Shown here: positions 2,958 through 58,364 of the stretch, piece after piece
Numbering within the stretch: position 1 is the first letter of the stretch
Layout: each line of letters starts with the position of its first letter
IMG/VR virus record: IMGVR_UViG_3300036832_000931
Span: 1-59,264 of that record
Source: a virus
Lineage: Duplodnaviria > Caudoviricetes
Strand: one strand, 5' to 3'
Length of the DNA: 59,264 nt
Made by a program: the position numbers and the translations under genes
Notes under the pieces: generated by a model
Database searches by the model: none
What the model was told of the DNA's origin: nothing
Seen by the model: only the letters and a program-made list of their open reading frames with translations

Positions 2958-3446
2958 GGTTCCTGCGTACTACGGCAGTGAAACTTATTCGGGTTCTCGC
3001 GTATCAGCGATGAAACCTTCGTCGACAATGTCACGGTTCCTGCGGTTGAGCAGTGAAACTCAGCGCGCTCCCGGCTCCTGCGTATCAGCAGTGAGACCCT
3101 TCGCTTTTGTTCATCGGTTCTCGCGTACCCAGCGATGAAACTTTTGAAACTGGATGGTTCCTGCGTGTTAGCAGTGAAACGCTTCCTGGGGCGGCGAACG
3201 GTTCTCGCGTATTCAGCGATGAAACTCGCAAGCTTAACTCCCCGGCTCCCGCGTACCGGCGGTGAGACCCTTCGTCGCTTATGGTTCCTGCGTTTGAGCG
3301 GTGAAACTGATGCCGACGCGAAATGTTCTACTCGGTTCCTGCGTGTTAGCAGTGAAACCCTGATCCAGTCAAAATGTCGGTTCTCGCGTACTTAGCGCTG
3401 AAACTGATGCGCGCCTCGATGGCTCCTGCGTTACCAGCAGTGAGAC
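2958..3446 (+). CRISPR. Compact CRISPR-like array: 12 truncated (25-27 nt) repeat hairpins with 7-26 nt spacers
   Basis: Copies start at 2958, 2992, 3035, 3073, 3116, 3156, 3200, 3244, 3283, 3334, 3379 and 3421. All match the 3' part of the 37-nt repeat beside the cas gene. Confidence 0.85.
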
Positions 3447-9726: not shown

Positions 9727-9986
9727 AATACTTACGCGCAAGCTCTGACGGCATGTGGATGTTGTTCTTCCCCGTCCTATCGCTCTTCTTCGTGATCTTC
9801 ATCCTCGTTATTACCGATGATGACGGCGTCTCGCGCAAACAGGAGGTTAAAGCGTGCGACATTGCCGTGCAGCAGCTGATGACCACTCATGATCTCGTCG
9901 AACTCCAGCGCGATGAATGGCTGATACATCACTTGCGTTGTTGGGTCACTCGGCGCGCAGTGCCGATACTGGTTCCTGCGAAATGA
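9723..9986 (+). CDS. Small membrane protein
   Basis: N-terminal hydrophobic helix; ATGA overlap with the upstream gene; stop inside repeat copy 9971-9996. Confidence 0.5.
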   Translation: MKYLRASSDGMWMLFFPVLSLFFVIFILVITDDDGVSRKQEVKACDIAVQQLMTTHDLVELQRDEWLIHHLRCWVTRRAVPILVPAK

Positions 9987-10025
9987 GCAGTGAAACGAAT
10001 AAGCGGTTAATAAGGGAATACTCTA

Positions 10026-11444
10026 ATGAGAAAAAGGAAAAGAGACTGGCCGATGAGGGTGATCAAGATTCGTGCGTATCCGAGAGTGATCCCGGATAGC
10101 GTCTGGGCGATCGCGAAGGACCAGAGAAAGCTGTGGAATGATTTGACCAGTATGTGGAAGGCGACCGCTGATCTGGCGGCCAACCTGCCTGAGCAGAAAA
10201 AAGAAATGTGGAAACAGTTTGAGGACTGGGCGGCAGCGGCCGTTAAACTGTCCGGCCTCGACTGGGTTAATGGACCGGATATTTTAGATAGATTGCGTGC
10301 TACCACGCGCTCGCGCAAACAGGCTCCACGCTTTCATGGTGCGCTGCAAAGGGTGTCGATCGGGCACAGATATACCGGCGGCGGGAAGGCTCTGGAGGAG
10401 GTGATTGATCCAGGCGTTCAGGTCAGACGATTCGCCTTGGTCTCATCGAAGGACTGGATCGCCTCGCAGCGCTCACAGATCGGTCAGCATTCGCCCAAGC
10501 GCAAGCATTGGCGCGGCCGCTTCCAGGTCGGTGAAGAGACGATTGAGTACTCGTTGGCGCTTCATCGCGAGCTGCCTGAGCGCGCGATTTTGAAGCGTGT
10601 GGCATGGCTGGGTGAGCGCAGTGGCCCGACATGGTTTTGGTACTTGGCGCTCACGGTGGAAGAAGAGCCGGTACAAGGTTCCTGCGTGACGACGAGCAGT
10701 GAAACTACAAGCTCTGCCGCTATCGACCTGGGCTGGCGGTTATTTGCCGATGGGACCAAACAGGACCGGCTGCGGGTCGGCATGCTGGCTGATTCCGAGG
10801 CGCGCATGATCGAGCTGCGGTTGCCGCTGCGCCTGCGGCCTAACCGCGTTCAGGAACAGCGCGGGCTGGATACCATCGCACAGTGGCAGGCCGAGGCTTC
10901 CAAGCTCGACAAGAGCTCTGACGAGTACCGCATGCTCACCCGCGAGATGAGACAGTTACGCTTTCGCTTAATCCAAAGGCGCAGATGGTACTACCTCAAT
11001 CTCGCCAACTGGCTCTGTCAGCGATACAAGCGGATTGCGCTCGAGGATATGAGCATCAAGGATCTGCATCGTAAGCCGGATGATCCCGCCTTGCAGAATA
11101 GCGCGCAGTATCGCAATTACGCGGCGATTGGGGAATTCCGTGCCCTGCTCCTGCGCACCGCCACCAAATACGGCTGCGAGGTCATTCCCGTCGATTCGAT
11201 TGACTCGACCAGGACGTGCTGGGAATGCGGAGCCAAGGCCGAGGCGAGTGGGCACCTGACGCTTAAATGCGAGAACGGGCACGAATGGGATCAGGATAAA
11301 AACGCCGCTCGTAATCTGTTCTCGCAACTGGAGGGGACTTTCGGGCAGACACACAGTTTGCGAAAAATAACGACTACTGGTAAGTGGAAACGATTGGAGT
11401 TGCCGGAGTCTATTGGAGCGGTTGCAGTTGAGGTTCCTGCGTGA
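10026..11444 (+). CDS. cas12: Compact type V CRISPR effector (TnpB/Cas12 superfamily, Cas12m/V-U1-like)
   Basis: RuvC-I AAIDLGWR, RuvC-II IALEDM, Zn finger CWEC...CENGH, RuvC-III WDQDKNAARNL. LHRELP..A.LK...W.L.LTV and LRVG motifs resemble Cas12m. Directly abuts a CRISPR array. Confidence 0.85.
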   Translation: MRKRKRDWPMRVIKIRAYPRVIPDSVWAIAKDQRKLWNDLTSMWKATADLAANLPEQKKEMWKQFEDWAAAAVKLSGLDWVNGPDILDRLRATTRSRKQAPRFHGALQRVSIGHRYTGGGKALEEVIDPGVQVRRFALVSSKDWIASQRSQIGQHSPKRKHWRGRFQVGEETIEYSLALHRELPERAILKRVAWLGERSGPTWFWYLALTVEEEPVQGSCVTTSSETTSSAAIDLGWRLFADGTKQDRLRVGMLADSEARMIELRLPLRLRPNRVQEQRGLDTIAQWQAEASKLDKSSDEYRMLTREMRQLRFRLIQRRRWYYLNLANWLCQRYKRIALEDMSIKDLHRKPDDPALQNSAQYRNYAAIGEFRALLLRTATKYGCEVIPVDSIDSTRTCWECGAKAEASGHLTLKCENGHEWDQDKNAARNLFSQLEGTFGQTHSLRKITTTGKWKRLELPESIGAVAVEVPA

Positions 11445-12003
11445 TGAGCAGTGAAACCGATAAGCAGAGCATCGCAGGCAACCGGTTCTCGCGGTTGCAG
11501 TGGAGGTTCCTGCGTGACGAGCAGTGAAACTTGGGTACGGCGACTTCGATGAAGTACAAATCAAAGGTTCCTGCGTTACCAGCAGTGAAACAGGCCATCA
11601 GGAGTTCCTCGATTTTCTCGCAGCCCTGAGTTGCAGTAGAGGTTCCTGCGTAATGAGCAGTGAAACTACTAATCCTGCTCAGTGCGGCCTGCGAATGAGC
11701 ATTGAGGTTCCCGCGTACGGGCGGTGAAACAATGAACAAACAGTTTCGATCAAGATTGTCATCACAGTTGGTGGTTCCTGCGTAATGAGCAGTGAAACAG
11801 CTGGAGATCACGCAGCTTGAGGTTCGTGCGTAAGGGCGCTGAAACTAGAAGCACAAGATGGTTCGCGCGTAAGGGCGCTGAAACTCATACACGGTCGAAT
11901 CGGTTCCCGCGTACTGGCGGTGAAACAGAGAGCCGTTTCAGGGTTCCCGCGTGTGGGCGGTGAAACAGGAGAAATGAGGTTCCTGCGGATACAGCAGTGA
12001 AAC
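11421..12003 (+). CRISPR. CRISPR array, 11 repeats; full repeat GTTGCAGTNGAGGTTCCTGCGTRAYGAGCAGTGAAAC (37 nt), shortening distally
   Basis: Full repeats at 11421-11457, 11494-11530 and 11630-11666; core-only or degenerate copies at 11566, 11706, 11773, 11821, 11860, 11902, 11942 and 11978. First spacers are 35-39 nt. Confidence 0.9.
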
Positions 12004-36532: not shown

Positions 36533-36813
36533 AGGTGGTCCTCCGGAAATCGTTAAATTCCACCGTTTCACCGCTGTTACGCGGGAACCGTCGTGCTATG
36601 TGCCTCGATGAATTTAACGCCCAGAAGAGGAACCCCGAGGCTCCGAACTGGCGTCGTCCGGTCGGGTTACTCGCGACTTTAACGCGACCTGTGCGAGTGG
36701 CTACCTTTGCGAAGAGTAGCAGGTCTAAATTTTTCTATAGACGCAACTAACTACTAAGTCAATATATCTTGACTGTCAGTCATCCCACGTTTCACCGCCG
36801 TAAACGCGGGAAC

Positions 36814-37074
36814 CTAACGCATGGTCTTGCCGCGCCCTGACATATGCCTGCCTGTGTCATGCTGATACTTCTTATCCGAAGCGTAGCCGCGCTTTGTTTC
36901 AGTACGCGAGTGCGTTTTGACCTTAGCTGGGAGTCCTTCAGTCTTGGTGGCTGCATAGTCATGCAGTTGCTTGTGCGACATCTTCGTCACACCAGCATTT
37001 TCGGGCGATACCGCTTCAGGGTCGTGCTCCGCAATCGCCATTAGTTTTTGTTGTTTTTTCGATACGGCAGGCAT
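36814..37074 (-). CDS. DUF3008-like small basic protein
   Basis: MPAVSKKQQKLMAIA...MSHKQLHDYAATK..GLP. Confidence 0.65.
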   Translation of the reverse strand: MPAVSKKQQKLMAIAEHDPEAVSPENAGVTKMSHKQLHDYAATKTEGLPAKVKTHSRTETKRGYASDKKYQHDTGRHMSGRGKTMR

Positions 37075-37113
37075 GTCATTAACCTCATGTTTCACCGCCA
37101 ATAACGCGGGAAC

Positions 37114-38187
37114 CTAACCTCTCAGATAGCTTACTTCATCGCCGTCCAAACCATCTGCACGAGCCATCGCGTATTTTAGATCGGCGGCAGTTTGCGGATT
37201 TGAGAGCGCGGCCATAAATTCCCGTTCACTCATCGCCTCGATATCCGCCGGACCATAATTGCGATACGAACTGGCACCACCAGCGTTACCACCTGCAGGA
37301 ATAGCACCCAAGCCCTGGAGTCTCTGACCGTTTTGTACCTGCTGTAGCCGTTGCGACTGCGGTGTAGCCGGTTGTGTTATGCGAGATCCTGTTTCAGCGC
37401 CATTTACGCGCGAACCTTGTTGTTGGTTAAAGCCCCACTCGCGGGCGAGCTGCGCCACTGCCGGCGCAAACTTGCCCCCGTACTGCTGGCTCAACCGCGC
37501 GATCATCACCGATTCCGCCTCCACCATCTTTTCAGCCAGACCCACAGGCGCATTCGGAGCGATCGACCGCCAGAAGCCGATACGCTTGTCGGCGGCGTAC
37601 TTGGCTGCCGGGAAATACTGCTGATCGTTGGCCGCATAGACGTTGGCTTCATTCTTTACCCAGTCTGCGAACTGCTGCTGGTCCTGATTGGACTGATAGG
37701 TCTGACCGAAGTTCTGGAGCTGCGACTGTAACTGCTCAATCAGCCCGCGATCCTGCAGACGCGCCTGCCTCACATCATAGAGTTCAGCCCCGACCGGATC
37801 GATGTTCGGATCGGGACGTTCTGCCGCACGGCGTTGCTCCGCAGTTAGACGCGCTGCCTGATCATTGGCTTCCTGGATGAGACGCTGCCGTTCATCCATG
37901 CGGGTTCTGAACTCACGATGTTGCGAGAGTTCATCGCTGAACTGCTTGTTCTGATCGAGGAGCTGTTTGAAGCGCCAATAAGGAACTTCCTCGGTTTGTT
38001 CCTGAGCGTGTGCGTCCGGCTGCTGAGGTTGCGGCGGTGCTTCTTCAGGAGCAGGTTCTGGTGCGGGAGCCTGCTCCGGCGCGGGTTGTTCCCCGGTTTC
38101 TAACGCTTCGACTTCCGCATCATTGGCTAATTCTCCAGGCTTAAAGCCTGCTCGCGGTTGTGCTGCCATTGATGGCATCTCCTTCAA
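37114..38187 (-). CDS. Capsid scaffolding protein
   Basis: Acidic/Pro N-terminus, VPY.RF, coiled coil, C-terminal MS.REF; upstream of the capsid gene. Confidence 0.7.
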   Translation of the reverse strand: MKEMPSMAAQPRAGFKPGELANDAEVEALETGEQPAPEQAPAPEPAPEEAPPQPQQPDAHAQEQTEEVPYWRFKQLLDQNKQFSDELSQHREFRTRMDERQRLIQEANDQAARLTAEQRRAAERPDPNIDPVGAELYDVRQARLQDRGLIEQLQSQLQNFGQTYQSNQDQQQFADWVKNEANVYAANDQQYFPAAKYAADKRIGFWRSIAPNAPVGLAEKMVEAESVMIARLSQQYGGKFAPAVAQLAREWGFNQQQGSRVNGAETGSRITQPATPQSQRLQQVQNGQRLQGLGAIPAGGNAGGASSYRNYGPADIEAMSEREFMAALSNPQTAADLKYAMARADGLDGDEVSYLRG

Positions 38188-38255
38188 GTTTCACCGCTGT
38201 TACGCGGGAACCATGTCGTCTTCTTACAGTTTCACTGCTTTATACGCAGGAACCT

Positions 38256-39512
38256 TTATTCCCACCTGATACCGAGCTCTTCACCACTTTCGATCGCTTC
38301 GGTTAACTGCTCAAGCGCACCGAGGTTAATATCCAGGTCGCGACCCTTGATATTTTCAGCGACCTCAACCGCTTCTTCCATCGCCTGACTCAGAGTCGTG
38401 CCCATACCGATTGCAGCACCACATTCAGTCAGCTTCGAGGGCGATACCGCATAGTCAGTGCCGTCGTATTGACAGTGTCCATAGAGGACTGTTCGATCCC
38501 AGCGTTCTGACGTAATGCGTAACGGGTTCTCCTTCCCATACTCGCTTTTGAAGATGATCTGCACCCCGATCGGGGCGAGCCATTCCGGCTCAACCACCCT
38601 GCCGTGAGCACCCTCCCACATAGTCTCGCCCAGATTATGGACCATGAACCGCATCAGGGCTGATGGCGGGTTGGGGTATCGTGCGGTGAAGTCAATGAAG
38701 TATGACCCCTGATCCGTTTCCCGCGTCTCCGTCGACATGGGACCGCGATAGTCAAACTGCTCGAGAATGGGGGCGAGCTTATCGACACAGTCCTGCAGAC
38801 GTTGCGGTAATTTGCCGACCCTACCTCCGTAGCAGACGTCTTTGACTTCGTAGCCCCAGAGATTCTCCGTTGGCAGTACCCCAGCGACGTTGACCAGGAG
38901 GTCCGCTCCAACTTCGACGCAGGGATCACCCTGAATGGGTTGCTCGATCACGAATTCCGCGTGGTCCCCATACGGTTCCATCTTGAGTGCCAGTTCATTC
39001 AAGCGGCGCGTAGTATCGACTGGATCCTCATGTTTGAAGGTTTCGGCCTCACCGCGGAAGGTCGAGAGTTTGATGTGGAGCTGGTCATCTTTCATCTCGC
39101 TCAGGATGTTGCGGAGATTCTCGACGCCAGTTACCGGCATAGCCTCGGCACAGCCCAGTTCGTACTTCTTGCAGACGCTTTTCAGATACCAGCGATCACG
39201 TTCGAGGCGAGCGGCAGCACCGGAGCCAAAGACTGGCTTGCCCTGACGGCGCAGCCACTCCTGCAGACCGGCATTACCGACATCGGGGAAGACCACCAGA
39301 TCGGCATCGTCTAATACGTCCCAGAAGTCATAGACGCGCTCGATCCCGTCCAGACCGGTACCGGGGATGTAGTCGCGCACCGAGGGAAAGGCTTTTTCCC
39401 ACGGGGAGTAGTAGTAGATGGTCCCAAATTGCCCAACTACCGATTCACACATATGCACATAGGAAGCACTGGGATCGAAAAATAAGACCGTTTTTGTTGA
39501 AAGGTCTGTCAT
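38256..39512 (-). CDS. ATP-grasp enzyme (PurD/GAR synthetase-like fold)
   Basis: DLVVFPD...PVFGSG.AA.LE.DR...K...FVIEQ.I.G...EV...YRGP.S......YFIDFTAR...P. Confidence 0.7.
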   Translation of the reverse strand: MTDLSTKTVLFFDPSASYVHMCESVVGQFGTIYYYSPWEKAFPSVRDYIPGTGLDGIERVYDFWDVLDDADLVVFPDVGNAGLQEWLRRQGKPVFGSGAAARLERDRWYLKSVCKKYELGCAEAMPVTGVENLRNILSEMKDDQLHIKLSTFRGEAETFKHEDPVDTTRRLNELALKMEPYGDHAEFVIEQPIQGDPCVEVGADLLVNVAGVLPTENLWGYEVKDVCYGGRVGKLPQRLQDCVDKLAPILEQFDYRGPMSTETRETDQGSYFIDFTARYPNPPSALMRFMVHNLGETMWEGAHGRVVEPEWLAPIGVQIIFKSEYGKENPLRITSERWDRTVLYGHCQYDGTDYAVSPSKLTECGAAIGMGTTLSQAMEEAVEVAENIKGRDLDINLGALEQLTEAIESGEELGIRWE

Positions 39513-39587
39513 CCCCGTTTTCGCCCAACGAGAACTGATTTACTTTTCATGACATCCACGAGTTTCACTGCCGTATACGCAGGAACC

Positions 39588-40058
39588 TCACTTACTGCGC
39601 GCACCTGCTTGCATGCTCGGTGCTTGCCCGCCACCACCCGCATTTGCTTGAGCCCCAGGTAAACTCGGTGCGGGGTTCATCGGCGCTGGTTGCCGTTGGA
39701 GCGGCTGTCCCATCTGTCCCACATTTGGCATCGGGCCGCGCATCTGGGGAGTGCCAATTGCCCCCCATTGCGGGTTTTGCTGCGGCATCGGCGGCGGCTG
39801 CATCACCGGACCCATCGCGGGAGTGCCGACTTTACCAAACTGTGGGTTTTGTTGTTGCATCGGTGGACTCGGCTGAGGAGTACCGATCGCACCGAATTGC
39901 GGACCCTGCGGGCTAACGGGTCCAGGCACGGGTGCGGTGATGGGCTGTGGCGGCTGCATAGGCGGTCCCATTGCGGGAGTGCCGATTTTACCGAACTGCT
40001 GACCCTGCGGCGGTGAGCCACCCATCTGACCGGTCTGTTGCTGTGGTCCTGCCGACAT
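39588..40058 (-). CDS. Pro/Gln/Gly-rich repeat protein
   Basis: Four Q(F/W)GxxGTP repeats. Confidence 0.6.
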   Translation of the reverse strand: MSAGPQQQTGQMGGSPPQGQQFGKIGTPAMGPPMQPPQPITAPVPGPVSPQGPQFGAIGTPQPSPPMQQQNPQFGKVGTPAMGPVMQPPPMPQQNPQWGAIGTPQMRGPMPNVGQMGQPLQRQPAPMNPAPSLPGAQANAGGGGQAPSMQAGARSK

Positions 40059-40570
40059 TAGCTTAGTTCCTCTTTCAATTGCCTCACCGCTGATACGCGG
40101 GAGTCTTCCTCGAAGCGGACGTGATGATGAAGGCTCCAGAAACCGGTCGTTTCCAGTGCCTGCTGATGACCGTCACCGGGGCGCAGGATCGGCCCGAAGA
40201 CCTCAGCCAATATGTAACGCGCCTGTTCGAAGTGCTCCGGTGACCATGAGCAGGTAGCCAACCACCCTTCTTCCGGCACCTCAAGCTTATATTTGCCTTG
40301 CTTCGCAGGACCGTCATCGACGGGAGTGTGACCGAGCAGTTCGAGCACAGCGGCTGAGCCGTGCCACACCGGTCTTTTCTTGTTCCACGTCTCAAGCATG
40401 AAGATGAGATGCCACGGTCCCATCTTCCAACGATATTCATCGACTATCGCCATGTTGCGATCGTACGCGGGGAAGCGCTGTGCAATCGCACGCTGCTTGG
40501 CGCACTTCTTCTTGAAGGACTCGATGTCCCACTTAGCTATAAAGTCGAGGCCAGTAACCATAATGCTCAA
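40058..40570 (-). CDS. Hypothetical protein
   Basis: 170 aa; TAATG coupling to the next gene. Confidence 0.6.
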   Translation of the reverse strand: MSIMVTGLDFIAKWDIESFKKKCAKQRAIAQRFPAYDRNMAIVDEYRWKMGPWHLIFMLETWNKKRPVWHGSAAVLELLGHTPVDDGPAKQGKYKLEVPEEGWLATCSWSPEHFEQARYILAEVFGPILRPGDGHQQALETTGFWSLHHHVRFEEDSRVSAVRQLKEELS

Positions 40571-40582
40571 ATCGGAAGTGTT

Positions 40583-40792
40583 TCACCGCTCTAAACGCGG
40601 GAACCCCAGAAACGGCGGACCAAATACACCGAGGAACTGTAACAAAATGACCACCAGAACCAGCGCCATAATCACGCGAATGACTACTCTAACTGGTGGT
40701 GGCAGTGGTATCTGTCCCAACAACCAGTCGAGGAGATAGAACACCAACCCGAGAATTACGAGATAAAAGATTAACGATATGAGGCTTATCAT
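40583..40792 (-). CDS. Two-helix membrane protein (Thivi_2564-like, candidate holin)
   Basis: LISLIFYLVILGLVFYLLDWLL..IPLPPP.RVVI.VI..LV.V.ILL. Confidence 0.65.
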   Translation of the reverse strand: MISLISLIFYLVILGLVFYLLDWLLGQIPLPPPVRVVIRVIMALVLVVILLQFLGVFGPPFLGFPRLER

Positions 40793-41280
40793 CGCGGTTG
40801 CTCGTCGACTACTTGCGCCAACCCCATCGCTTCAGAGAGCGACGATGCGCCTGCTGCTGCATGACCATTAGTCACTGGTGGAGCGAACATTTCCGGCTGC
40901 GTCGGCGCTGCCAATGCCGGAGCCGGTGCGAGTGAACGATCCATACGATCCTCAGCTTCGATCTGGTTGGCCAAGGGCTGATGCAGACGACAGTACCAGC
41001 TACCGGTGCGGTTGAACTGGCTGGGCTTGGTCTTGTAGATGCCCTGTCGCCCGCAATGGACACAGGGATTGGTCACAACTGCTGATGCTGCTGGAGTCTG
41101 ATGCGTTTCACCGCCGATACGCGGGAACCCGGCTGTATTTAGACCAGCTGCCACCAGCAGCGTTCTGACCTCGTCCAGTTTACGGGCGCAGACCATAAGC
41201 GCCGCAGCCTTCATCGCTTCGCTGAAACCCTGCTCATAGATCTGTTTCGCCGAGCGCTGGATTTCCATATCCAGCGACAT
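40789..41280 (-). CDS. Hypothetical protein with CxxC...CxxH motif
   Basis: Probable start MSLDMEIQ; CVHC...WYCRLH. Confidence 0.5.
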   Translation of the reverse strand: MSLDMEIQRSAKQIYEQGFSEAMKAAALMVCARKLDEVRTLLVAAGLNTAGFPRIGGETHQTPAASAVVTNPCVHCGRQGIYKTKPSQFNRTGSWYCRLHQPLANQIEAEDRMDRSLAPAPALAAPTQPEMFAPPVTNGHAAAGASSLSEAMGLAQVVDEQPR

Positions 41281-41353
41281 TTGCCGGCGTCGGCGACGGC
41301 GCTTCGGCTTATCCACGCGGTCTAAACGTTTCACTGCTGTATACGCAGGAACC

Positions 41354-42064
41354 TCACCGGGGTCTAAACGGGTCGTGGTACGTGCGCGCCTGCTGCTGAA
41401 ATTGTTTTCTTCCATGATCCGCCAGTTCACTTCGTAAGATGTAGTCGTCCTCTTCGCACATGCCGCCGTGTTCCCAAGTGGAGAGCGGGTCGCGCGTCCA
41501 CATTGGGTTGCGGCAGTTGTGGCACCTCGTTGCAATCCACGGAGCAGTCAGTGGCGTACCGGGTCGTTCACTGGCTATTCGCCACCGCCGCCGATCAATC
41601 GGAGCTGGGTGCATCGGGGGGCCGTCGATAATCGAGACGAGCGGCGTTTCACTGCTCTTATACGCAGGAACCTCTGCAGTCGTGCCACTGCTTCCATCGC
41701 TAAGTTTCACTGCTGTTTGCGCAGGAACCTCTTGTCCCATCGTCCTGATGCCATGCCCTCGTGCCCACTTCTGCCATGTACGCCTGCCACAGCCGCATGC
41801 ACACAAATTCGGTGGTTCTGATGGTGGCGGCGCTGAGCGTTTCAGTTTCACTGCTTCATCCGCGTCATCCGCAGGAACCGCTTCTTCCGGGGGCTTAACT
41901 TTGCTCCATAGTGCGCTCAGCTTTTCGATGTTCGCCTGCTGCTGTGCCGCACGTTCGGCCTCCTGCTTTTCCAGATACGGCGCACGATGACCGGAACGAA
42001 AGCCGCCAGCGTCTTGCACCATTTCGCCGCAGCCGCAGGCACATTCGAACTTCGCGTAAGCCAC
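41354..42064 (-). CDS. Protein with two CACGCG Zn-binding motifs, carrying three in-frame repeat copies
   Basis: ECACGCG...F.SGH and LCACGCG...WARGH; AVPA...AVKL, EVPAQTAVKL and EVPAYKSSET are repeat-encoded. Confidence 0.6.
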   Translation of the reverse strand: MAYAKFECACGCGEMVQDAGGFRSGHRAPYLEKQEAERAAQQQANIEKLSALWSKVKPPEEAVPADDADEAVKLKRSAPPPSEPPNLCACGCGRRTWQKWARGHGIRTMGQEVPAQTAVKLSDGSSGTTAEVPAYKSSETPLVSIIDGPPMHPAPIDRRRWRIASERPGTPLTAPWIATRCHNCRNPMWTRDPLSTWEHGGMCEEDDYILRSELADHGRKQFQQQARTYHDPFRPR

Positions 42065-44296
42065 TTAGACCTCGCCTCCTTGATCTTGCGCGCCCGGAGG
42101 CGGTTGCGGTGCGGGACCACCAAAGCCACCAAACGCACCCATACCCTTGGCTAAAGCATTAGTGATGTTCAGTTTATGTTGATGACCTTTGTGCATCAGG
42201 TCAGCGACATCTTTGCCGCGCTGATGAGCATTCTTGAGCCGCTCCTGTTCCATCTGATGCTGCTCATACTGACCCTTCTGCCCTTGTGATACCGCTTCGA
42301 GGGCGAACTTTGGTCCGGTCAGATTCGAGCGCATATCAATCTCACGAGCCTGCGACATCGCTTTCTTCGCTTGCGCGCTACGCAGCTGCACGTTGGCCTG
42401 CACCAGTTCCGGTGGATCCTGTTTGCCCCGTCCCTTCTGCGGCTGCCCCTTCTGCTGTTGCTGCATCTGCGCCGCCTGCTTCTGAATATCGGTGACCAGT
42501 TGGCTCGGGAAGGGGCTGTATTTCAGCAGCTGGAGGATCATCTGACCCATGCCGAACTTCATCAGGGCCTGCAGGATGCCGCTCTCCATCAGATCACGCC
42601 ACACTGCGGCTTTAAGGTTCGGGTTATGTTTCACGCTGTCGTCGAGCACCAGACTGTAGTGCCAGCGATCAGGGAGCGATTCCTTGAGTAACGGTGCTGA
42701 CTGACTGTTAAAGTCGCCACCGACTTGGATAATCTGACCCTGCGACCAATATTCGCGGATGAACTCGAGCGTCATCGTGGCTTTCTCTTTGTGATGACGC
42801 CGGAGATTGTCAAAGAACCAGCCGAGGACCACGAGACCAGCCTGCGTACGACCCTGGGCGGTCTGGGAGGGAGTCTGACCGGTAGCCTGACCGATCAGTT
42901 CCGCGTTGACGCCGCTCACCAATGTCATCGCTTTCTGAGCCTCGCTATAAAACATCGGGAGCTCAGGCGGCAGTTGGGTCGGAGTACGCGGCACTATGTC
43001 GTTCTTGATGTCGCTCTCGTCAGTGACCGGAATCCAGGCATCGGGTTGAGACCATGCATCCTGTGCGCGGCGGGGATCGTCAAATGCGCGAGGCTTGAAG
43101 AGTACGCCGCCCTTGGCATTGCTGATGTGGAAGGCGAGCGCACTGCTGATGGCTTTGTTCTGGGTCTTTTGCGGGTCGATCATGTTGCGGACGAGGCCGT
43201 ACCAGCGCTTCTTTTCCTCGTCCCACTGTCCGGTCATGCACAACAGCGAAAACCCACCGGGGAGATCGACCGGTTCCTCCAGTTCGATGCCGCGGCAGTA
43301 CATGCCCTGCCGAAAGACCGGCTGCATCTGCTTGACGGCGGGAGGTGGAGGCGTACCAAGCATCTTGGCGCGTTTCTTCAGACGGCCCCACTGCACCTCG
43401 TCGAACTGATTTTCCTCACCCGTCGTTTCATCGATGAGGCGGAACACAGGTTGCATGTCACGCCATTGGTACTGAACGACAGTCACGTCCTTTTTGGGAC
43501 CACCGCCCCCCACTTGCGGGTTAGCCTGCTGATTCGCTCGACTGTAGTAAGGCGTAACCAGCTCATATTTATCGGTGGCCCCAAAAGGCGTATCAGGGGT
43601 GGAGAGATCAACTGAAGCCAGTTTCTCTTCACCCCAAATCTGTTTGAACTTTTTACGGGAGATAGGTTTCTTGCGGGCGCACCACTCACGCCCCTCGAGA
43701 TTCTCCTTTTTCTGATTGTTGGGATCCCATCTCATTTCGTCCCACGGCAACCGCTCGTAGATGACCCGTCCGTTAATGTCGTCGGAATAATCCATGCGGA
43801 TTTCCGACCAGCCCATGCCGGTAACTACCGCATCACGCGCTACGCGGCTCAGTTCCTCACTGGCATTGCAGAGATCATCCGCAGTTGAGACAGCCTCGCT
43901 AGCGAGATCACCAGCAGCATCGAGTTGCGGTGGAGAATCCATCGCGCGGCTGACGAAGCGGACATCAGAGCGGTTGAGCCGCTCCAATCCGCTGACCGCA
44001 TCCACCGCCGGTTTGATCATATTGAAGACGATGGCGGGACGCTTGGTCCGTTCCATCGCCATGCGGTCAATGTCGTCCCACTGGTGGCCGGCGTAGAAAC
44101 GATTGTCTTCTTTGGCGGAACCAATGAAGGCTTGATAGGTGGATTCGGAACTGGCGAGATCGCGCAACACCTTCTGCGCGCGTTCCTCAGCGTCATCACT
44201 GTCATTGAGCCGGGTGATCTGTTCGCCAGGAGCCTGCGACCCCTGATCGGCACCGAGAAAGACGCGGGCATAAATGTCAGTTGACTCAGCCATCAC
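42065..44296 (-). CDS. Portal protein (P22-like)
   Basis: ED.RFYAG.QW...RP...FN.I...VD.VSG.E...G.GW...YGLVR.M.DPQ...NK...GV..E..G; Q-rich barrel. Confidence 0.9.
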   Translation of the reverse strand: MMAESTDIYARVFLGADQGSQAPGEQITRLNDSDDAEERAQKVLRDLASSESTYQAFIGSAKEDNRFYAGHQWDDIDRMAMERTKRPAIVFNMIKPAVDAVSGLERLNRSDVRFVSRAMDSPPQLDAAGDLASEAVSTADDLCNASEELSRVARDAVVTGMGWSEIRMDYSDDINGRVIYERLPWDEMRWDPNNQKKENLEGREWCARKKPISRKKFKQIWGEEKLASVDLSTPDTPFGATDKYELVTPYYSRANQQANPQVGGGGPKKDVTVVQYQWRDMQPVFRLIDETTGEENQFDEVQWGRLKKRAKMLGTPPPPAVKQMQPVFRQGMYCRGIELEEPVDLPGGFSLLCMTGQWDEEKKRWYGLVRNMIDPQKTQNKAISSALAFHISNAKGGVLFKPRAFDDPRRAQDAWSQPDAWIPVTDESDIKNDIVPRTPTQLPPELPMFYSEAQKAMTLVSGVNAELIGQATGQTPSQTAQGRTQAGLVVLGWFFDNLRRHHKEKATMTLEFIREYWSQGQIIQVGGDFNSQSAPLLKESLPDRWHYSLVLDDSVKHNPNLKAAVWRDLMESGILQALMKFGMGQMILQLLKYSPFPSQLVTDIQKQAAQMQQQQKGQPQKGRGKQDPPELVQANVQLRSAQAKKAMSQAREIDMRSNLTGPKFALEAVSQGQKGQYEQHQMEQERLKNAHQRGKDVADLMHKGHQHKLNITNALAKGMGAFGGFGGPAPQPPPGAQDQGGEV

Positions 44297-47200
44297 GCCA
44301 CCGCGGTTTCGCCCATGCTTTGCAGTTGTTTCATGCGTTTAGTGAGATTCGCCTGAGTGGTTTTGTTCTTCACTTGCGGCAGTTCTTGTCTGAGGCGCGT
44401 CTGCAATACCTGCATCAGCATCGGCCTTTCTTCAGGTGAGGCCAGTTCCGTTGCCATCATCGCATCGGTCAGCGGCATCCCCGCCAGTACATCGGTGGCT
44501 TTAGGGTCGTTGTGGAATTGAAGGGTCTTCCTGACTTCATCGACCGAGTGACGGCCGCTGGCCAGATCACGCGACACATCGACGGGAGAAGTTGGCTTGC
44601 TGACATTCATCGCGAGCTTCTGCGCCGAGTCGGCAGAGGAGCGGCTGGGAGCGACGTTCTCGGAGCGCATACGATCGGCAGCGCTGACGCCGGGGCCGGG
44701 ACTTGGACTCGGCGTCGGAAATAGGGGGGTCGGCGTTCCCCAAATCTCAGGGTGCCGGTTACCTTTCACCGCCTCTTCGCGGGAACCTGATGTCGCTGAC
44801 GCAGCGTTCACCGAGTATTTCTCAACGGCTCTGCTCAAGCTCGCTCCGCGCTCGTACTCGTCGAGGATTTCCTGATCGACTTGCGTCTTTGCCAAACCCT
44901 CGGCAATGATGCTGCGGCCAATCGCCCTAGTCAGTGCGTTCGGACGGGAGAGATAAGGCGTGGGATTGCGTAGAATGTGTTCAACATCCTGCGCGAGAAT
45001 CGGATCCTTCGCCATCGCTTCACGAAGACCCCTATACATCATTTCACCTGGAACCAGCCCCGTGAACGCACCAAAACCGGTGAGCGCGAAACCGGAAAAC
45101 CGGCTCATCATTGGCATCGCGATATCCACCAGTGCCCAGATCCCCGCTCGATTCTTCCAACGTGTAAAGAACTGCCGCTCTTTATAGCCCCTCTGGAAGT
45201 TCTGGACGGCGGCACCTGATTCGAGAGCTTCCTGCCGCGTCATGGGTTCCGGGCTACCACCACCACCGCCACTAGGGTCCAGCCGCCGTTGAAGATTATC
45301 GCGAGTATCCGGTAACCCTTGTACACCCCCGGGAGGGGCTAACCTCGGCTCTTCTCTCGCCGCCGCAGCTTGTTCACGCGCAGTGGTCTGCTGCGGGTAT
45401 GCTGCCTCCGCTTGCTGTCTGGCTAAATCAGGGTTCTGGATTTCCGGTGGTTGCTGTTTGAGTTGGTTTTCAACGGTATCAGGGATAGGTGGCTGCTGCT
45501 GCAGCGCATGGGTTTGTTCCGCACCCGCGATAAACTCAGATGCCTTTCTGGCAGCCAGTTCCGCATTGCTTCCAACACGCTCTCTGATCAGTACATCAGG
45601 GGGTGCCTCTTCTGCCGAGCGAATCCGGAATTTAAGTTGCCTCTCCAGAGCCGGACCTAATAGATGCGCGTCTCTGCGGGCTAGCTTGACGGTGATGTCG
45701 GCCAATCGGCGATTCCGGTCACCAACGTCTTGCATGACATCGTTCAGAAAGCTCTGCTTCAGTCTGGGATTCGCCTCGATCGCGGCGGCCGCAGCCTTGA
45801 TATTCTTATCGTTACGAATCCAAGAGTCTTTGTTGCGGAGGTCGCTAGTCTCGGGGAATAACTCGTCGAGTATTTTCTGGTCGACATTATTGATCCATTG
45901 CGGACCATTTTCCTTCACATTAGCAGCGATCTGATCGCGCAGTTCCATGCGCGTACCGAAACCATCGTCAGCAGCGAGCTTGGAATGCTGGATCAGTTCG
46001 AGCGCTGCCTGCGGGTGTTGAGTCAGCAGTACGTTTGAGGCATCGACCGGCCGTTCAAACTGGTTCAGCCGTCGCTCGAGCGCAGGGGTGAAGTTGTTGC
46101 GGTGGTTGAAGTACTCCTCGTTGAGCTCCTGCAACCTTTGAAGATTGGCTTCTCCTGCTCGCTCGGGGGGAAGACTATCAACGTGAGCCTTGATGTTATC
46201 GTCAATGCCGTCGTTAATTGCCTCAATCGCTACCTGATTGGTGGGATCTCTCTCCCTGAGGATGAGTCCTTTAGCCTCGCGCTGTACCTTGAGCAGATCA
46301 CGGATACTAGCTGGCGGATGTGCTGCGTGAGCCTGCTCGATCTCCCATCGCGCGGGACTTAAAGCATAACGCCGCTCCAGAATCTTTGCGTGGGCCTGCT
46401 CCGGTGTCTTGGGTTCAAACCTATGCCCCACCATCGAATCGTACTGAGCCTGTTCAGCGGGGTCATATGCCCTAGTGCGGTCAACGGCAGCTTCCTTTTC
46501 GGCTTGTGCAAGGAAATTTCTGACTTCCTGCGGGGATTTACCCTGAGCAGCTAGGACGTCTGCATCAGTCGGCGCAACTAGACTTCTTACCCTGTCGAAA
46601 AAGCCTCTGACCTTAGGATTTACCGGTCGATTCTTCCACTCAGGAGCGATGACGTTACCCTGCTCGTCCCGCTGCTCATTCTGCTCCTCATCCATCTTCC
46701 TGATGAGTGGATCATAATTGGTCGGTCGTTCGTCTTTGATCGTGTCAGGGATGGCTTGATCGCGCTCGCTACGCCAGTTCTCGCGATAAGCCGTTACCGG
46801 CGCTTTCGTGGCACGTCGGAAAATTCGGTCGCGCAGGCTCCGGAGAGGCCCAGACGGCATGGTGTTATCAAAGACCGGTTTGCCCTTCCTGTCCTGATTA
46901 GCCTCATCAACCTCCTGCTGAATAGCGTCTTTGGCTGCCTCCTTGCGATATTTTGTGGCGTGCTTATCCCTGGCCGCCTGCTCATCGGTTTTGATCTGTT
47001 CTTCTTCTGCAGCCGCTGCCTGCCTTTGGGCATGTTCAGCTTCTGCCTTACCGAACGTTACCTTTGCCGCATCTTCTCTCTGCTTATCAAGCGCCGTTTG
47101 CCGTTCGTCCGTTGCTTTCTCGACGAACTTAGTACGTGCCGCCTCGGCTTTGTCCTGTGCTCTTTGTCCGGCTCCTACCGCTTTGTCCTGTTGTGATTCA

Positions 47201-47991
47201 GTTTCTCGTCGCGCCGCCTCATCGGCACTTTGAGTCGCTTTGGTGAAGCGGTCACGGGCTTTCGCTGAAGCTGCCTCCATCTCAGGCCTCAAGGTGCCTT
47301 CGCCACCAAACATACTTTCAGCTTTCGGGACGCCATAGGCTTCGATTCCCATTGGCACACCCAAACCCGCCACCAAGCCTGCCCCTTCAGCAACCATTGG
47401 ATGATTCGGGAATAGCGCGTGAGCCCCTTCCTGAGCTAGTTGCGAACCCTTTACAGAGGCGACCACTGAGCCCGCACCAAGAGCTTTCTGCGCGATCTTG
47501 GGTCCGGCCTTTTCGACTGCCTGCAGTGTGCCTTCATGTCGTAAACCAAGGTTTTCCAACCATCGGCGGGCAGTGGGACCAGTCATAGCTTCCAACACTG
47601 ACTTGGCAGCTGGTTTTACCACTGCCTCTCCTGCTTCTCCTAACTCCCCTACCTCTCCACCGGGAATCAGTAACGAGGCTAAGGCCGTGTAATAGGGATG
47701 CCGATCCATCCAGTCGGTGACTTTCTTGCCCTGCCGATTCACATAATCGTAGGCTGTGCCCACGGGCGAATTGCGGACAGCATTGAACTGAAACGGGTCC
47801 ACGTTCATTAAGTACGCGAGCGGTGCCGGTATAAACTGGTCCTGCGTCTGATGCTTAAACTCGGCTTCTTCCGGAGCAGTGAACCCTGATCGCGGCGGTT
47901 TTGCTGCTGGTTTCACCGCTGTTTCGCGGGAACCTGAATCACTCGCCGGCGGAGCATAAGGGACGGCGTCATCGGGTACTGGAATTGGCAT
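44293..47991 (-). CDS. Large internal virion/DNA ejection protein
   Basis: 1232 aa, helical and A/E/R/Q-rich; last gene of the ejection-like cluster. Confidence 0.6.
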   Translation of the reverse strand: MPIPVPDDAVPYAPPASDSGSRETAVKPAAKPPRSGFTAPEEAEFKHQTQDQFIPAPLAYLMNVDPFQFNAVRNSPVGTAYDYVNRQGKKVTDWMDRHPYYTALASLLIPGGEVGELGEAGEAVVKPAAKSVLEAMTGPTARRWLENLGLRHEGTLQAVEKAGPKIAQKALGAGSVVASVKGSQLAQEGAHALFPNHPMVAEGAGLVAGLGVPMGIEAYGVPKAESMFGGEGTLRPEMEAASAKARDRFTKATQSADEAARRETESQQDKAVGAGQRAQDKAEAARTKFVEKATDERQTALDKQREDAAKVTFGKAEAEHAQRQAAAAEEEQIKTDEQAARDKHATKYRKEAAKDAIQQEVDEANQDRKGKPVFDNTMPSGPLRSLRDRIFRRATKAPVTAYRENWRSERDQAIPDTIKDERPTNYDPLIRKMDEEQNEQRDEQGNVIAPEWKNRPVNPKVRGFFDRVRSLVAPTDADVLAAQGKSPQEVRNFLAQAEKEAAVDRTRAYDPAEQAQYDSMVGHRFEPKTPEQAHAKILERRYALSPARWEIEQAHAAHPPASIRDLLKVQREAKGLILRERDPTNQVAIEAINDGIDDNIKAHVDSLPPERAGEANLQRLQELNEEYFNHRNNFTPALERRLNQFERPVDASNVLLTQHPQAALELIQHSKLAADDGFGTRMELRDQIAANVKENGPQWINNVDQKILDELFPETSDLRNKDSWIRNDKNIKAAAAAIEANPRLKQSFLNDVMQDVGDRNRRLADITVKLARRDAHLLGPALERQLKFRIRSAEEAPPDVLIRERVGSNAELAARKASEFIAGAEQTHALQQQPPIPDTVENQLKQQPPEIQNPDLARQQAEAAYPQQTTAREQAAAAREEPRLAPPGGVQGLPDTRDNLQRRLDPSGGGGGSPEPMTRQEALESGAAVQNFQRGYKERQFFTRWKNRAGIWALVDIAMPMMSRFSGFALTGFGAFTGLVPGEMMYRGLREAMAKDPILAQDVEHILRNPTPYLSRPNALTRAIGRSIIAEGLAKTQVDQEILDEYERGASLSRAVEKYSVNAASATSGSREEAVKGNRHPEIWGTPTPLFPTPSPSPGPGVSAADRMRSENVAPSRSSADSAQKLAMNVSKPTSPVDVSRDLASGRHSVDEVRKTLQFHNDPKATDVLAGMPLTDAMMATELASPEERPMLMQVLQTRLRQELPQVKNKTTQANLTKRMKQLQSMGETAVA

Positions 47992-50816: not shown

Positions 50817-50823
50817 TATTTGC

Positions 50824-51717
50824 CTATGCGAACTGACGGGTGTTGCTGCCCATCATCAGCGCGAGCAGTTGCGCCAGTGCCGGATTCTGACCGCCGCCTC
50901 CTCCCGCACTGATGCCAGCCGCGGTCGGCATATTACCTCCACCTTGATTAGCCATCACTCCGGCAGCACCGGGTAGTTGCTGTGCCGGAGGAGTCTGCAG
51001 AGGAGCTACCGGCTTGGGAGTCATCTGCTGAGGTGGTGCAGCCGGTGGTGGTGTCGGCTGCGTGTTCTGCTGCTGACCCTGTCCGCCACCCATCACAGCT
51101 TTTGCCGCTTGTTGTGCCGCTGGTGACTGCATCACCTGACCAGTAGGTGACTGGAGAAAACTATTGAGTTTCCCCATGATCCCTCCACTGCCGGGAGCGG
51201 CTCCCTGCTCTGTTGATGCTCCAGTAACCTGATTCTGCAGTGAGCTCAGGAGCGGGTTGCTGCCCAAGGCCGAATTGATGTCACCCATTCCCGGCGCGCC
51301 ACCGGTTCCAGGTGTTGCCAAGTTTGGAGTCGGCCCGGGAGTACCGGCACCTACTTTCCCACTGAACATGTTGCCGATCCCACTGGCCATGCTGCCCAAT
51401 CCGCTACTAGCCATTCCCGGTAGATTACTCAGACCACTCAGCCCGAGGCTGCCTGTCAGGCCACCGCCGCTGGTCATACCTGCGGTACCACCGGCACCGA
51501 GGGCTGATAGACCCTCTGCACCGCCACCGGCCAGCCCACCGACCATGCTGCCCATGTTGGCTCCGGACTGACCGCCCGCCCCTTGTCCCGCCATCTGCCC
51601 AACCCCGGACATCATCAGGGGAACCCCGATTTCAGGTGCGCCGAAAGCGGTGGCCGCAGCGCCACCGACCGTCTTCAGACCCCCGAAGATGTAATTATTT
51701 GAGCCGCCACCACTCAT
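50824..51717 (-). CDS. Gly-rich internal virion/ejection protein
   Basis: G/A/M/S-rich; MSGGGS start. Confidence 0.6.
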   Translation of the reverse strand: MSGGGSNNYIFGGLKTVGGAAATAFGAPEIGVPLMMSGVGQMAGQGAGGQSGANMGSMVGGLAGGGAEGLSALGAGGTAGMTSGGGLTGSLGLSGLSNLPGMASSGLGSMASGIGNMFSGKVGAGTPGPTPNLATPGTGGAPGMGDINSALGSNPLLSSLQNQVTGASTEQGAAPGSGGIMGKLNSFLQSPTGQVMQSPAAQQAAKAVMGGGQGQQQNTQPTPPPAAPPQQMTPKPVAPLQTPPAQQLPGAAGVMANQGGGNMPTAAGISAGGGGGQNPALAQLLALMMGSNTRQFA

Positions 51718-51759
51718 ATTAATTTACTGCTTTCAGTTTCACTGCAATTACGCAGGAAC

Positions 51760-52530
51760 CTAGTTTTGCCGCGCGGCTATCCGGTCTTGCCGCGCCTGTT
51801 GTCTCGCTGCTACTTTCTCTTGTCGCGCTTCTTTTCGCGCTGCTACCTTCTCTTGCCTTTGCTCTTGCCTTGCCTGTCTCAGTTCTTGGCGTAGCTCCTT
51901 CGGGGTCTGCTGAGTTGTCGGGCCACCCTGAACGGGAGCAGGCGGGGGTGCAGGAGCCGGTGGTGGAGGTGCAGCGGCAGTTCCGGCAGCTCCTGGCGAA
52001 AACATCCCACCGAAGCTGCTGGGACTAGGGGTACCAGCATTCATACCCCCGCCCATTACGGGATTGGCAGGATTAGGATTCGTCGTCAGACCGCTGGTGA
52101 AGCCTCCCAGCGGATTTGACCCACCATAAAGACCGGCTAATTGAGATGCCGCAGCCGGTGACGTTGCACCGGCAAACGCCGCAGGATTCTGCGCTGCCAT
52201 GTTTTGCAGAAAGGGACTACCCGAGATCATCGGGGAGAACAGCGAATAGGCACTCCCGCTAGGATCGATCTGCTGGAGCATCGAGGCTGCGGCCTGCCCG
52301 CCACCTCCGCCGGCTCCACCACCAGTCGTGGTGACACCGGTATTGGCACCACCGGTCGGAAAGCTTTCGCCCGGTGTGTTGAACCAACTGGACGGGACGG
52401 TGCTGCCGGGAAAGACATAGCCCATCAGGGAGGAGAGATAAGCCTTGGCCGGCTCACGCTCCCACTGCGGCAGCTTTTGGTTGCTCTGCGTGGTGGTCTG
52501 TTGTGACCCGCTACCGCCGCCTCCGCTCAT
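51760..52530 (-). CDS. Gly-rich internal virion/ejection protein
   Basis: MSGGGGSGSQQTTTQ...LP.W..P...YL; basic C-terminal ARQE repeats. Confidence 0.6.
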   Translation of the reverse strand: MSGGGGSGSQQTTTQSNQKLPQWEREPAKAYLSSLMGYVFPGSTVPSSWFNTPGESFPTGGANTGVTTTGGGAGGGGGQAAASMLQQIDPSGSAYSLFSPMISGSPFLQNMAAQNPAAFAGATSPAAASQLAGLYGGSNPLGGFTSGLTTNPNPANPVMGGGMNAGTPSPSSFGGMFSPGAAGTAAAPPPPAPAPPPAPVQGGPTTQQTPKELRQELRQARQEQRQEKVAARKEARQEKVAARQQARQDRIAARQN

Positions 52531-52588
52531 AGTTCGCTCTCCTTATGATCACGATATATTCAGTTTCACCGCCAGTACGCGGGAACCT

Positions 52589-53701: not shown

Positions 53702-53723
53702 CGCTCATACGCGGGAACCTTGT

Positions 53724-54807: not shown

Positions 54808-54834
54808 AAGTTTCACTGCCGATACGCAGGAACC

Positions 54835-55494: not shown

Positions 55495-55697
55495 AAAACC
55501 ACCTCTACTTCATCTTATAGTCACATGCTCGATCTCCCGATAATTCTCACCCAAGATAAACCGCATACAGTCACAGCCCCTTTCCCGGCATACCCCTTCC
55601 TCGTCCTGATGCAGCATCCGAGTGTGACCGCAGAGGCAGAACTGCTGATGCCATACGCTGGCACAATGCGGTCTGCGTGAGATTCGTTTCACTGCCA

Positions 55698-58274: not shown

Positions 58275-58364
58275 TTACCTGATTCTCTTCAAGCGTTTCA
58301 CTGCCGGTTACGCAGGAACCTAACCTTCACTCATCGCTTCGTTTCACTGCCGATACGCAGGAAC

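Follow-up and report, generated by a model that had tools for sequence, protein, structure and literature searches.

A CRISPR array beside a phage-encoded miniature Cas12m-like effector gene, its distal units probably pared to a hairpin handle and a short guide

The locus studied here lies in the IMG/VR virus record IMGVR_UViG_3300036832_000931, a linear sequence of 59,264 bases that was analysed whole and is called the window below. The record is that of a temperate tailed soil phage. At the locus, the gene of a miniature Cas12m-like effector runs directly into a clustered regularly interspaced short palindromic repeat (CRISPR) array, in which reading of the sequence and parsing recognise 11 units at 11421-12003. 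Proximal units are canonical in appearance, and distal units are reduced to a 25-26-nt 3′ handle, namely a 7-bp bulged hairpin that a G.A mismatch and a closing G-C pair flank, and to the 11-22 nt after it. An earlier reading of this DNA from its letters alone (the sequence-only reading) had described a gradient between these two forms, and its claims are taken up below with the results that bear on them.

The effector gene and its array

The features of the locus are as follows.

10026..11444 (+): Cas12m-like (TnpB-derived) effector gene, an open reading frame (ORF) of 472 aa
11421..11457 (+): repeat 1, 37 nt, encoding VAVEVPA and the stop codon
11458..11493 (+): spacer 1, 36 nt, from the array parse
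11494..11530 (+): repeat 2, 37 nt, from the repeat search and array parse
11531..11565 (+): gap 2, 35 nt; counted by eye, 5/11 of its final positions agree with the 5′ repeat part
11566..11591 (+): unit 3, a 26-nt hairpin core with unrecognisable 5′ part, from parse and fold
11592..11629 (+): spacer 3, 38 nt, from the array parse
11630..11666 (+): repeat 4, 37 nt, from the repeat search and array parse
11667..11705 (+): gap 4, 39 nt, with a degenerate 5′ repeat part (GCATTGA) at its end, from the array parse
11706..11798 (+): unit 5 (11706-11730, CCGC/GCGG stem), a 42-nt gap ending CAGTTGGT, and unit 6 (11773-11798)
11799..12003 (+): compressed distal part, with units 7-11 after a 22-nt gap that ends in GCAGCTTGA
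11821-11845, 11860-11884, 11902-11926, 11942-11966 and 11978-12003 (+): units 7-11, separated by 14, 17, 15 and 11 nt
9971..9996 (+): solitary hairpin unit, ending 29 nt before the effector start codon
10677..10705 (+): in-frame hairpin copy inside the effector gene, with a 10-nt loop, encoding GSCVTTSSET

The effector has the RuvC residues D234, E340 and D424 and the zinc-finger ligands C398, C401, C415 and H419, and Pfam assigns it a Cas12f1-like TNB zinc-ribbon domain (PF07282, E 7.9e-11). Its best sequence match in the PDB by phmmer is a Cas12m (23vw_A, E 2.1e-20), over query residues 309-433 only, that is, the C-terminal third. An AlphaFold2 model with 16 homologues as input reached a predicted local distance difference test (pLDDT) of 82.8 and a predicted template-modelling score (pTM) of 0.63. 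In a Foldseek search this model matched Cas12m2 8hhm_A best (E 3.1e-17, query template-modelling score (TMq) 0.60), and ranks 1-4 were all Cas12m2 or Cas12m (E 3.1e-17 to 5.1e-13, TMq 0.55-0.61), with Cas12f and TnpB ranking lower. In the model, the effector core of a TnpB/Cas12 RuvC domain and a zinc finger is closest to Cas12m. Identity is low (13-18%); over the structural alignment the effector is 16-18% identical to the solved Cas12m proteins, and it is ~120 residues shorter; this tells against the Cas12m-based interpretation given below, and makes the protein a distant Cas12m member or a sister group. An IS200/IS605 TnpB element was tried as an alternative identity and rejected: the record gave no Y1_Tnp match at E<=1, no transposon ends and no TnpA, and conservation of the RNA unit is confined to 26 nt and an A at position -1, unlike a long omega-RNA.

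The gene and the array are physically fused. The first 21 bases of repeat 1 are translated into VAVEVPA, the effector C-terminus, and the stop codon falls in the loop of the same repeat. Because VAVEVPA is conserved in the alignment of 16 homologues and comes from the repeat itself, the handle is tied to the gene family-wide. The in-frame copy within the gene occupies a linker that varies among homologues, immediately ahead of RuvC-I. A low-depth contig of the source run reads the 3′ half of the handle at this in-frame copy and then diverges.

All lengths given for the array by the sequence-only reading, including the 37-nt repeats of units 1, 2 and 4, were reproduced by our reading and parse. 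The 26-nt cores start at 11432, 11505, 11566, 11641, 11706, 11773, 11821, 11860, 11902, 11942 and 11978, and the gaps from core to core are 47, 35, 49, 39, 42, 22, 14, 17, 15 and 11 nt. When the intact 11-nt 5′ part of units 2 and 4 is subtracted, they become 36, 35, 38, 39, 42, 22, 14, 17, 15 and 11 nt; the end-to-end periods are 73, 61, 75, 64, 68, 47, 39, 42, 40 and 37 nt. The full repeats of units 2 and 4 are 95% and 88% identical to the first in a 40-nt frame. The two ends of the array are as the sequence-only reading had them, although unit 3 interrupts the order between them. Loss of the 5′ 11 nt, which had been ascribed to the distal units in general, is found in units 8-11 and also in unit 3, whereas units 5, 6 and 7 keep degenerate 5′ parts with 1-nt indels before the core (GCATTGA, CAGTTGGT and GCAGCTTGA), so that their true spacers are shorter than the measured gaps.

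Constant repeat length and near-constant spacer length do not extend throughout the array. They hold in its proximal part alone, where 37-nt repeats (11421, 11494 and 11630) and 36-39-nt spacers lie beside the effector gene. By sequence-level tests the locus is a putative type V-M-like system, and only its proximal half is canonical. A fixed hairpin pattern with <=3 mismatches has 25 matches in the window, where 0.05 are expected and 100 shuffles gave a maximum of 1. The main array is absent from the 29 rows returned by Tandem Repeats Finder.

From the source run, a Logan contig of 1634 nt is identical to the window over 10710-12343 (0 differences), which indicates that the layout of the array does not depend on a single assembler, both assemblies being made from the same reads. 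The sequence-only reading had proposed to compare array variants in reads, and one was found: in a contig of the source sample, an unrelated 38-nt spacer stands between two repeats. The end of a source-sample contig goes on with an 11-nt gap and an extra hairpin absent from the window. A read joint from 11591 to 11902 was considered as a further variant and dropped, its 25-nt side lying in repeats. A scan of 9300-12500 for sigma-70 promoters and terminators gave 0 promoters and one terminator-like site (-), below the shuffle mean. At 11967-12003 (+), the 11-nt gap before unit 11 contains a Shine-Dalgarno sequence and an ATG that opens an 8-codon frame through the hairpin to a TGA; this arrangement may be due to chance.

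Pairing in the hairpin handle

Every unit of the main array keeps the 25-26-nt core GGTTC-N4-loop-N4′-TGAAAC. Each unit type folds alike into a 7-bp hairpin with one bulged U (-6.6 to -9.8 kcal/mol), and the G.A mismatch position is next to the closing G-C pair. The stems are CTGC/GCAG in units 1-4, 6 and 11, CCGC/GCGG in units 5, 9 and 10, GTGC/GCGC with one G-U in unit 7, and GCGC/GCGC in unit 8. Stem substitutions number 13, in units 5 and 7-10, and none of them breaks a pair, whereas the loops and gaps vary freely; the flanks GGTTC and TGAAAC are unsubstituted in 11/11 units.

The same relation is seen across the window. A search that contained no pairing rule, with GGTTC, GC, GC and TGAAAC fixed (<=1 mismatch) and the two variable stem positions free, gave 63 copies, 61 of which were paired at both variable positions; when the 3′ halves were permuted, the mean was 38.4 and the maximum 48 in 10,000 trials. 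Watson-Crick types among these copies were CT/AG (34), CC/GG (18), TC/GA (5) and GC/GC (2), and the remaining two copies were G-U intermediates. Pair counting on the same 63 sequences (alignment A2) gave 99.1% of cells paired against 94.3% after shuffling, a level that 0/500 shuffles reached. Cells changed on both sides numbered 31 against 9.6 in shuffles (again 0/500), and controls with slid partners were paired in 35-49%. In four copies (3073, 3244, 3421 and 50120) a third stem pair covaries as well, GGCTC going with TGAGAC. Three G-U intermediates are on the sense strand, which favours pairing of RNA over pairing of DNA. Folding of the whole array as one RNA gave a z of -1.16, which is uninformative because the repeats pair with each other, and Rfam has no family that matches the main array.

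As judged from this covariation, the hairpin is under structural selection and is not simply decaying. The sequence-only reading had held that the hairpin stays paired through compensatory changes and that decay does not suffice as an explanation; both views are borne out within the array and genome-wide, by an excess of structure-preserving substitutions above permutation and shuffle.

Distal degeneration is common in CRISPR arrays. Under neutral decay, the old end of an orphan array would erode by deletion, and hairpins would be alike through recent copying or homogenisation by recombination. Two features would agree with this: no Cas1 or Cas2 was found to be encoded in a search of the 59,264-base record, and the 5′ parts of units 5-7 are degenerate and have indels. 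However, erosion of this kind predicts neither the pairing kept by every stem substitution nor the unsubstituted flanks, and in two relatives with unrelated repeat sequences (L013 and L143, below) the handle was kept and the spacer shortened independently. We therefore regard neutral decay as distinctly unlikely.

Second array and dispersed copies

The hairpin extends far beyond the main array. A strict scan found 61 copies and a looser scan 72, of which three (3769, 12828 and 15739) were set aside as chance since shuffles give 1-6. In all, the 59-kb record holds ~70 handle copies, an inverted copy at 56013 included, mostly in sense orientation at gene junctions. Outside the main array and the effector gene they are placed as follows, according to motif scans.

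2958..3446 (+): second array; 12 units that consist of the hairpin alone and stand 7-26 nt apart
36565..59245 (-): ~37 dispersed sense-strand units in the block of packaging, head and ejection genes
15955+, 17152-, 17684+, 20866+, 21800+ and 21883+: six dispersed units
1271-, 2674-, 9341- and 33337+: further dispersed units

PHROGs annotation of the record includes a large terminase (56628-58274, -), a portal protein (42065-44293, -), a tail fibre (25543-27999, -) and an integrase (15891-17099, -). Most units at 36565-59245 sit between a stop codon and the following ribosome-binding site, and some lie in-frame inside genes. The motif scans found no hairpin copies in the tail block (21910-33330) or in the early region (3450-9340); the antisense copy at 33337 is just outside the former. 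Genes of the tail block often overlap or abut, and those of the hairpin-rich block are spaced apart by the cassettes.

In the second array, units 4, 8 and 12 are the covarying GGCTC...TGAGAC variant, and several gaps begin alike over 5-8 letters (three with CTTCG and two with TGATGC). The likeness of these spacers and the recurrence of hairpin types in blocks of four point to duplication rather than acquisition, and the sequence suggests that array 2 is three diverged copies of a four-unit block. Over the tandem gaps of <=30 nt (n=23), the median gap is 16 nt and the median period 42 nt. Around the dispersed copies, the sole conserved letter upstream is an A at -1 (32/46), and no conserved sequence follows the hairpin. 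Hence, the earlier proposal that canonical repeats were trimmed to the form seen in the second array and across the genome is supported in part: the same minimal form is indeed present there, and the remnants at units 5-7 fit trimming, but units 8-11 show no trace of canonical descent and dispersed copies keep the A at -1 alone.

Such placement could mean that the handles are docking or processing sites with no guide function. The compressed units, array 2 and the junction copies would then be sites on RNA for binding or cleavage by the Cas12m-like protein, which would punctuate, stabilise or translationally control the phage messages or buffer free effector, and the short gaps would be linkers set by its footprint. 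In accordance with this possibility, 43/47 dispersed copies (the inverted 56013 counted) are in the sense of the surrounding genes; 12/70 copies adjoin a stop codon that closes an open frame of >=50 codons, the first G of the hairpin often completing TAG; and an ORF of >=50 codons begins <=60 nt downstream of 38/70 copies. The lack of conservation downstream of the hairpin, the mutual likeness of the array 2 spacers, the narrow period and the failure to find spacer targets (below) point the same way. Yet the four to five long spacers, together with the canonical arrays of relatives, show guide use in the family, and gaps of ~16 nt match the working guide length of the superfamily. We consider pure docking fairly unlikely, and it overlaps our preferred interpretation, that of an array of short guides, more than it excludes it.

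A palindrome of the repetitive extragenic palindromic (REP) or miniature inverted-repeat transposable element (MITE) kind, spread at the DNA level by a transposase and piled beside the gene by chance, would account for copies that lie in-frame within genes in all three frames, and according to Pfam the effector family descended from IS200/IS605 TnpB. This is highly improbable when set against the lack of a Y1 transposase in the record, the strong sense-strand bias with G-U intermediates, and the attachment of the hairpin in relatives to the 3′ end of the effector gene.

One dispersed copy has a further feature. Downstream of the degenerate hairpin at 49519 (~49480-49500, -) is an exact ~16-nt match with the effector gene (10824-10839, +), borderline with respect to chance, as we estimate that ~0.05 such matches are expected over all copies.

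Relatives and the origin of short units

Forty-two other proteins match the effector at E<=0.001, the closest being 46-51% identical. A motif scan of 154 fetched loci listed 34, and in 30 of these the homologous gene has the GGTTC...GTGAAAC hairpin at its 3′ end, either singly or as the start of an array. Of the other four rows, two are apparent chance matches (L031/L033, one sequence, and L148) and two are inverted copies (L053 and L056). L053 and L056 are the closest metagenomic relatives; in both, part of the 3′ end of the effector gene is repeated in inverted form with its hairpin intact (L053 2385-2409, -; L056 1852-1876, -), ~330 nt upstream of the gene, whose own terminal hairpin is degenerate and has no array after it. 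The minus-strand copy at 9341-9365 in the window occupies the syntenic place.

Compression is a recurrent fate of arrays in this effector family, with polarity in two of three cases, both in distant relatives. In L013, a viral contig of 113 kb whose repeat sequence is unrelated, the array has 39 units, and their periods outward from the gene are 73, 72, 75, 77, 71, 74, 69, 62 and 72 nt and then 40-79 nt, mostly 48-61. In L143 the periods from the gene outward are 72-80 nt and then 45, 51, 67, 74, 47, 33 and 52 nt, with 5′-truncated repeats. Since polarity recurs in unrelated arrays, the process can be tested by comparison. Canonical arrays are represented by the close relatives L058 and L059, each with seven 37-nt repeats and spacers of 35-39 nt plus one of 51 nt; both cas-proximal spacers differ between them, and 2/6 spacers are in common.

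Hairpin-only copies outside an array are found in one relative, the 110-kb viral contig L045 (homologue 26% identical). There are four, at 3693, 6631, 9172 and 16456 (+), on one strand and with a repeat unrelated to that of the window. G001, the record of L014, has no dispersed hairpin copies in 53.8 kb. In five further relatives (L061, L064, L069, L072 and L073; ~30-33% identical) a single handle stands downstream of the gene and no array is present. Next to this handle comes a guide-like stretch that is conserved from contig to contig, and beyond it the opposite strand has a conserved region; to judge by sequence these loci look like a fixed-guide, TldR-like regulator.

The differing cas-proximal spacers of L058 and L059 and the polarity of L013 and L143 agree with the earlier claim that spacers are added at the proximal end. 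The part of that claim which names host Cas1-Cas2 as the agent fares less well, as neither protein is encoded in the record and no host array with this hairpin was found in 401 sampled Acidobacteriota genomes, the phylum being a guess from the best bacterial homologue. Cas1 had no match in G001, the sole relative searched (L058, L059, L084 and L093 were not covered).

Handles might also serve as RNA anti-CRISPR decoys, which would imitate the repeats of a type V-M-like system in the host and thereby sequester its effector. Solitary viral repeat units have been proposed to bind and inhibit cognate effectors, in the available part of that report (10.1101/2023.03.03.530964), and the copy number here is high. 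However, the cognate effector is encoded by the phage itself, with repeat 1 built into its gene, and this on-board effector sets the locus apart from decoys of the solitary-repeat type. Neither a host array nor a homologue with this hairpin occurs in the 401 genomes, the best bacterial homologue of the effector is 32% identical, and a decoy would not need placement from stop to start codon. We hold the decoy explanation to be very unlikely.

We propose, as the probable interpretation, that the array at this locus is a CRISPR array which serves the miniature Cas12m-like (type V-M-like) effector encoded by the phage, with distal units pared to a working handle and a short guide. The CRISPR RNA (crRNA) of Cas12m2 is described as a 36-nt repeat-derived scaffold with a 20-nt guide, in which the first 7 scaffold nt are disordered, a G.A pair closes the stem, and the guide-target duplex spans 17 bp only (PMC10442227, in the part available). 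Cas12m proteins cleave their own pre-crRNA within the repeat, giving crRNAs of 50-60 nt with no trans-activating crRNA (tracrRNA), and bind DNA without cutting it even when they have a D-E-D triad, according to the accessible part of PMC11013384. What the compressed units have lost, namely the 5′ 11 nt and the spacer beyond ~16 nt, corresponds to what an effector of this kind leaves unused, and hence we read the array as pared under selection. Guides of ~16 nt in TnpB and of 9-11 nt in some TldR proteins, as given in the portion of PMC10705468 at hand, indicate that such lengths can work for binding-type regulators.

According to this proposal, an integrase supplied in trans would insert new units at the cas-proximal end. 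As units age, deletions would remove from the repeat its 5′ 11 nt and from the spacer the part distal to the protospacer-adjacent motif (PAM), neither of which the effector should need, and selection would retain the handle with a guide of ~16 nt. The compressed units most likely still yield crRNAs with short guides, or at any rate offer the Cas12m-like protein sites for docking and cleavage, for control of the binding, non-cutting type. The same minimal module would have been multiplied into the second array and at ~45 gene-junction sites, where the effector probably binds or cuts the polycistronic messages of the phage itself.

Several observations weigh against this interpretation. Completeness of the phage is estimated at 63% (CheckV), so part of it is missing from the record. 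Shrinkage along the array is not monotonic, unit 3 lacking its 5′ part although it is flanked by the canonical units 2 and 4, and gaps of 11 and 14 nt fall below the 17-bp duplex of Cas12m2. The covariation counts refer to cells, not to events, and copies may share descent; at least three to four independent paired changes are required. Array 2 resembles a diverged block duplication, for which no guide function is required. Among relatives, short units of L113 are interspersed and show no polarity, and 10/11 motif-matched arrays (L058, L059, L014, L084, L005, L043, L007, L016, L029 and L038 being the regular ones, with the rows of L143, L018 and L033 dropped) are regular at 71-76 nt with few short units at most.

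Targets are a further difficulty. The sequence-only reading had suggested a search of the long spacers for targets and a PAM, and neither a protospacer nor a PAM appeared in the sets covered, which were isolate phages, plasmids, the 154 fetched loci, the phage itself and the 401 genomes, and not IMG/VR or the metagenome collection. The phage itself gave matches of 11-16 nt only, at about the chance rate; isolate phages and plasmids gave a best E of 2; the 154 loci gave as best a 15-nt match (E 0.038); and the 401 genomes gave two weak hits (E 0.003-0.005 per genome), both in ordinary sequence and neither in a repeat. In four genomes with distant homologues, no match was better than E 0.43. The exact hairpin pattern occurred in 0 stretches of IMG/VR, from which near relatives of the record itself may be excluded.

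A more specific version, which we put forward tentatively as a possibility, treats the compressed units as mini-crRNA genes made up of a 26-nt handle and a ~16-nt guide. The two short-guide arrays would silence host or rival genes in the manner of CRISPR interference (CRISPRi), and the ~45 handle-tagged messages would be cut and bound at their 5′ ends, which would time or tune the packaging, head and ejection genes; a single small DNA-binding protein would thus serve an RNA programme that spans the genome. The gradient would then show units built by an integrase being pared to the module.

As a kind, the locus is known (type V-M-like), but literature searches, which did not cover supplementary files, brought up neither compressed Cas12m arrays nor handles scattered phage-wide, and in these two respects we take it to be a new variant. 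The nearest systems are the type V-M Cas12m proteins MmCas12m2, GoCas12m and MsCas12m, known to us from parts of PMC10442227 and PMC11013384. They are the best structural and sequence matches and likewise have one small effector beside an array with repeats of ~36-37 nt and no adaptation genes nearby; their handle is at the 3′ end of the repeat with a G.A pair closing beside the stem, a description that the hairpin predicted here would fit; the D-E-D triad is also present in some Cas12m proteins that only bind DNA (PMC11013384). In contrast to these, the protein described here is phage-borne and has 472 aa instead of ~600, its stop codon is inside repeat 1, its array consists partly of a handle with 11-22 nt, and ~45 copies lie outside the arrays.

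MvCas12m of myxophage MV-1 (bioRxiv 10.64898/2026.09.14.751636) is also a phage-encoded Cas12m-type effector beside an array, with conserved RuvC residues, no cas1, cas2 or cas4 and no protospacers found. It differs in having 610 aa, one consensus repeat and eight spacers in an ordinary array, and the part of the report available mentions neither compressed units nor dispersed repeats. The solitary repeat units and two-repeat mini-arrays of Shmakov et al. (10.1101/2023.03.03.530964) likewise stand outside the main array, also in viruses, and have proposed regulatory or effector-binding roles; as far as that text was available, they number one or a few per locus, have spacers of 20-60 bp and are usually beside cas genes, unlike the ~70 handle-trimmed copies that the present phage has at gene junctions in 59 kb, with gaps of ~16 nt.

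In TnpB omega-RNA and TldR systems (PMC10705468, seen in part), the 3′ end of the gene and the guide scaffold likewise overlap, guides are short (~16 or 9-11 nt), and some systems are prophage-borne and act by DNA binding; the five relatives with a single handle and a conserved guide-like sequence are comparable. Differences from these are the scaffold, which is a 26-nt hairpin in the phage and ~150 nt there, the true multi-spacer array and the intact RuvC.

In engineered intercistronic cleavage, Csy4 or Cas12a sites are set between cistrons, which the Cas RNase separates and insulates. The likeness to the present phage is a CRISPR-repeat hairpin that separates a stop codon from the ribosome-binding site after it; the engineered case is synthetic, and by analogy the phage may have a natural, phage-wide equivalent. 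To our knowledge, application of a CRISPR protein to the own messages of a virus has so far been only an engineering trick, and together with the junction copies the phage would, if the proposal is true, be a natural case. If the compressed units work, they would be the smallest natural guide-RNA genes known for a Cas12-type protein (~42 nt per unit) and would show how regulation with fixed units can arise from an adaptive array. For compact tools for gene control, an effector of 472 aa that works with a 26-nt handle and ~16-nt guides would also be attractive.

In addition, two Twister-P5 self-cleaving ribozymes (Rfam RF02684) lie at 4383-4440 and 4725-4782 (+), with 46.7 and 56.8 bits against a gathering score of 37.6. 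The pair sits in a hairpin-free stretch, with array 2 on one side and a plus-strand gene at 4826 on the other, and would give the same phage a second RNA-cutting device.

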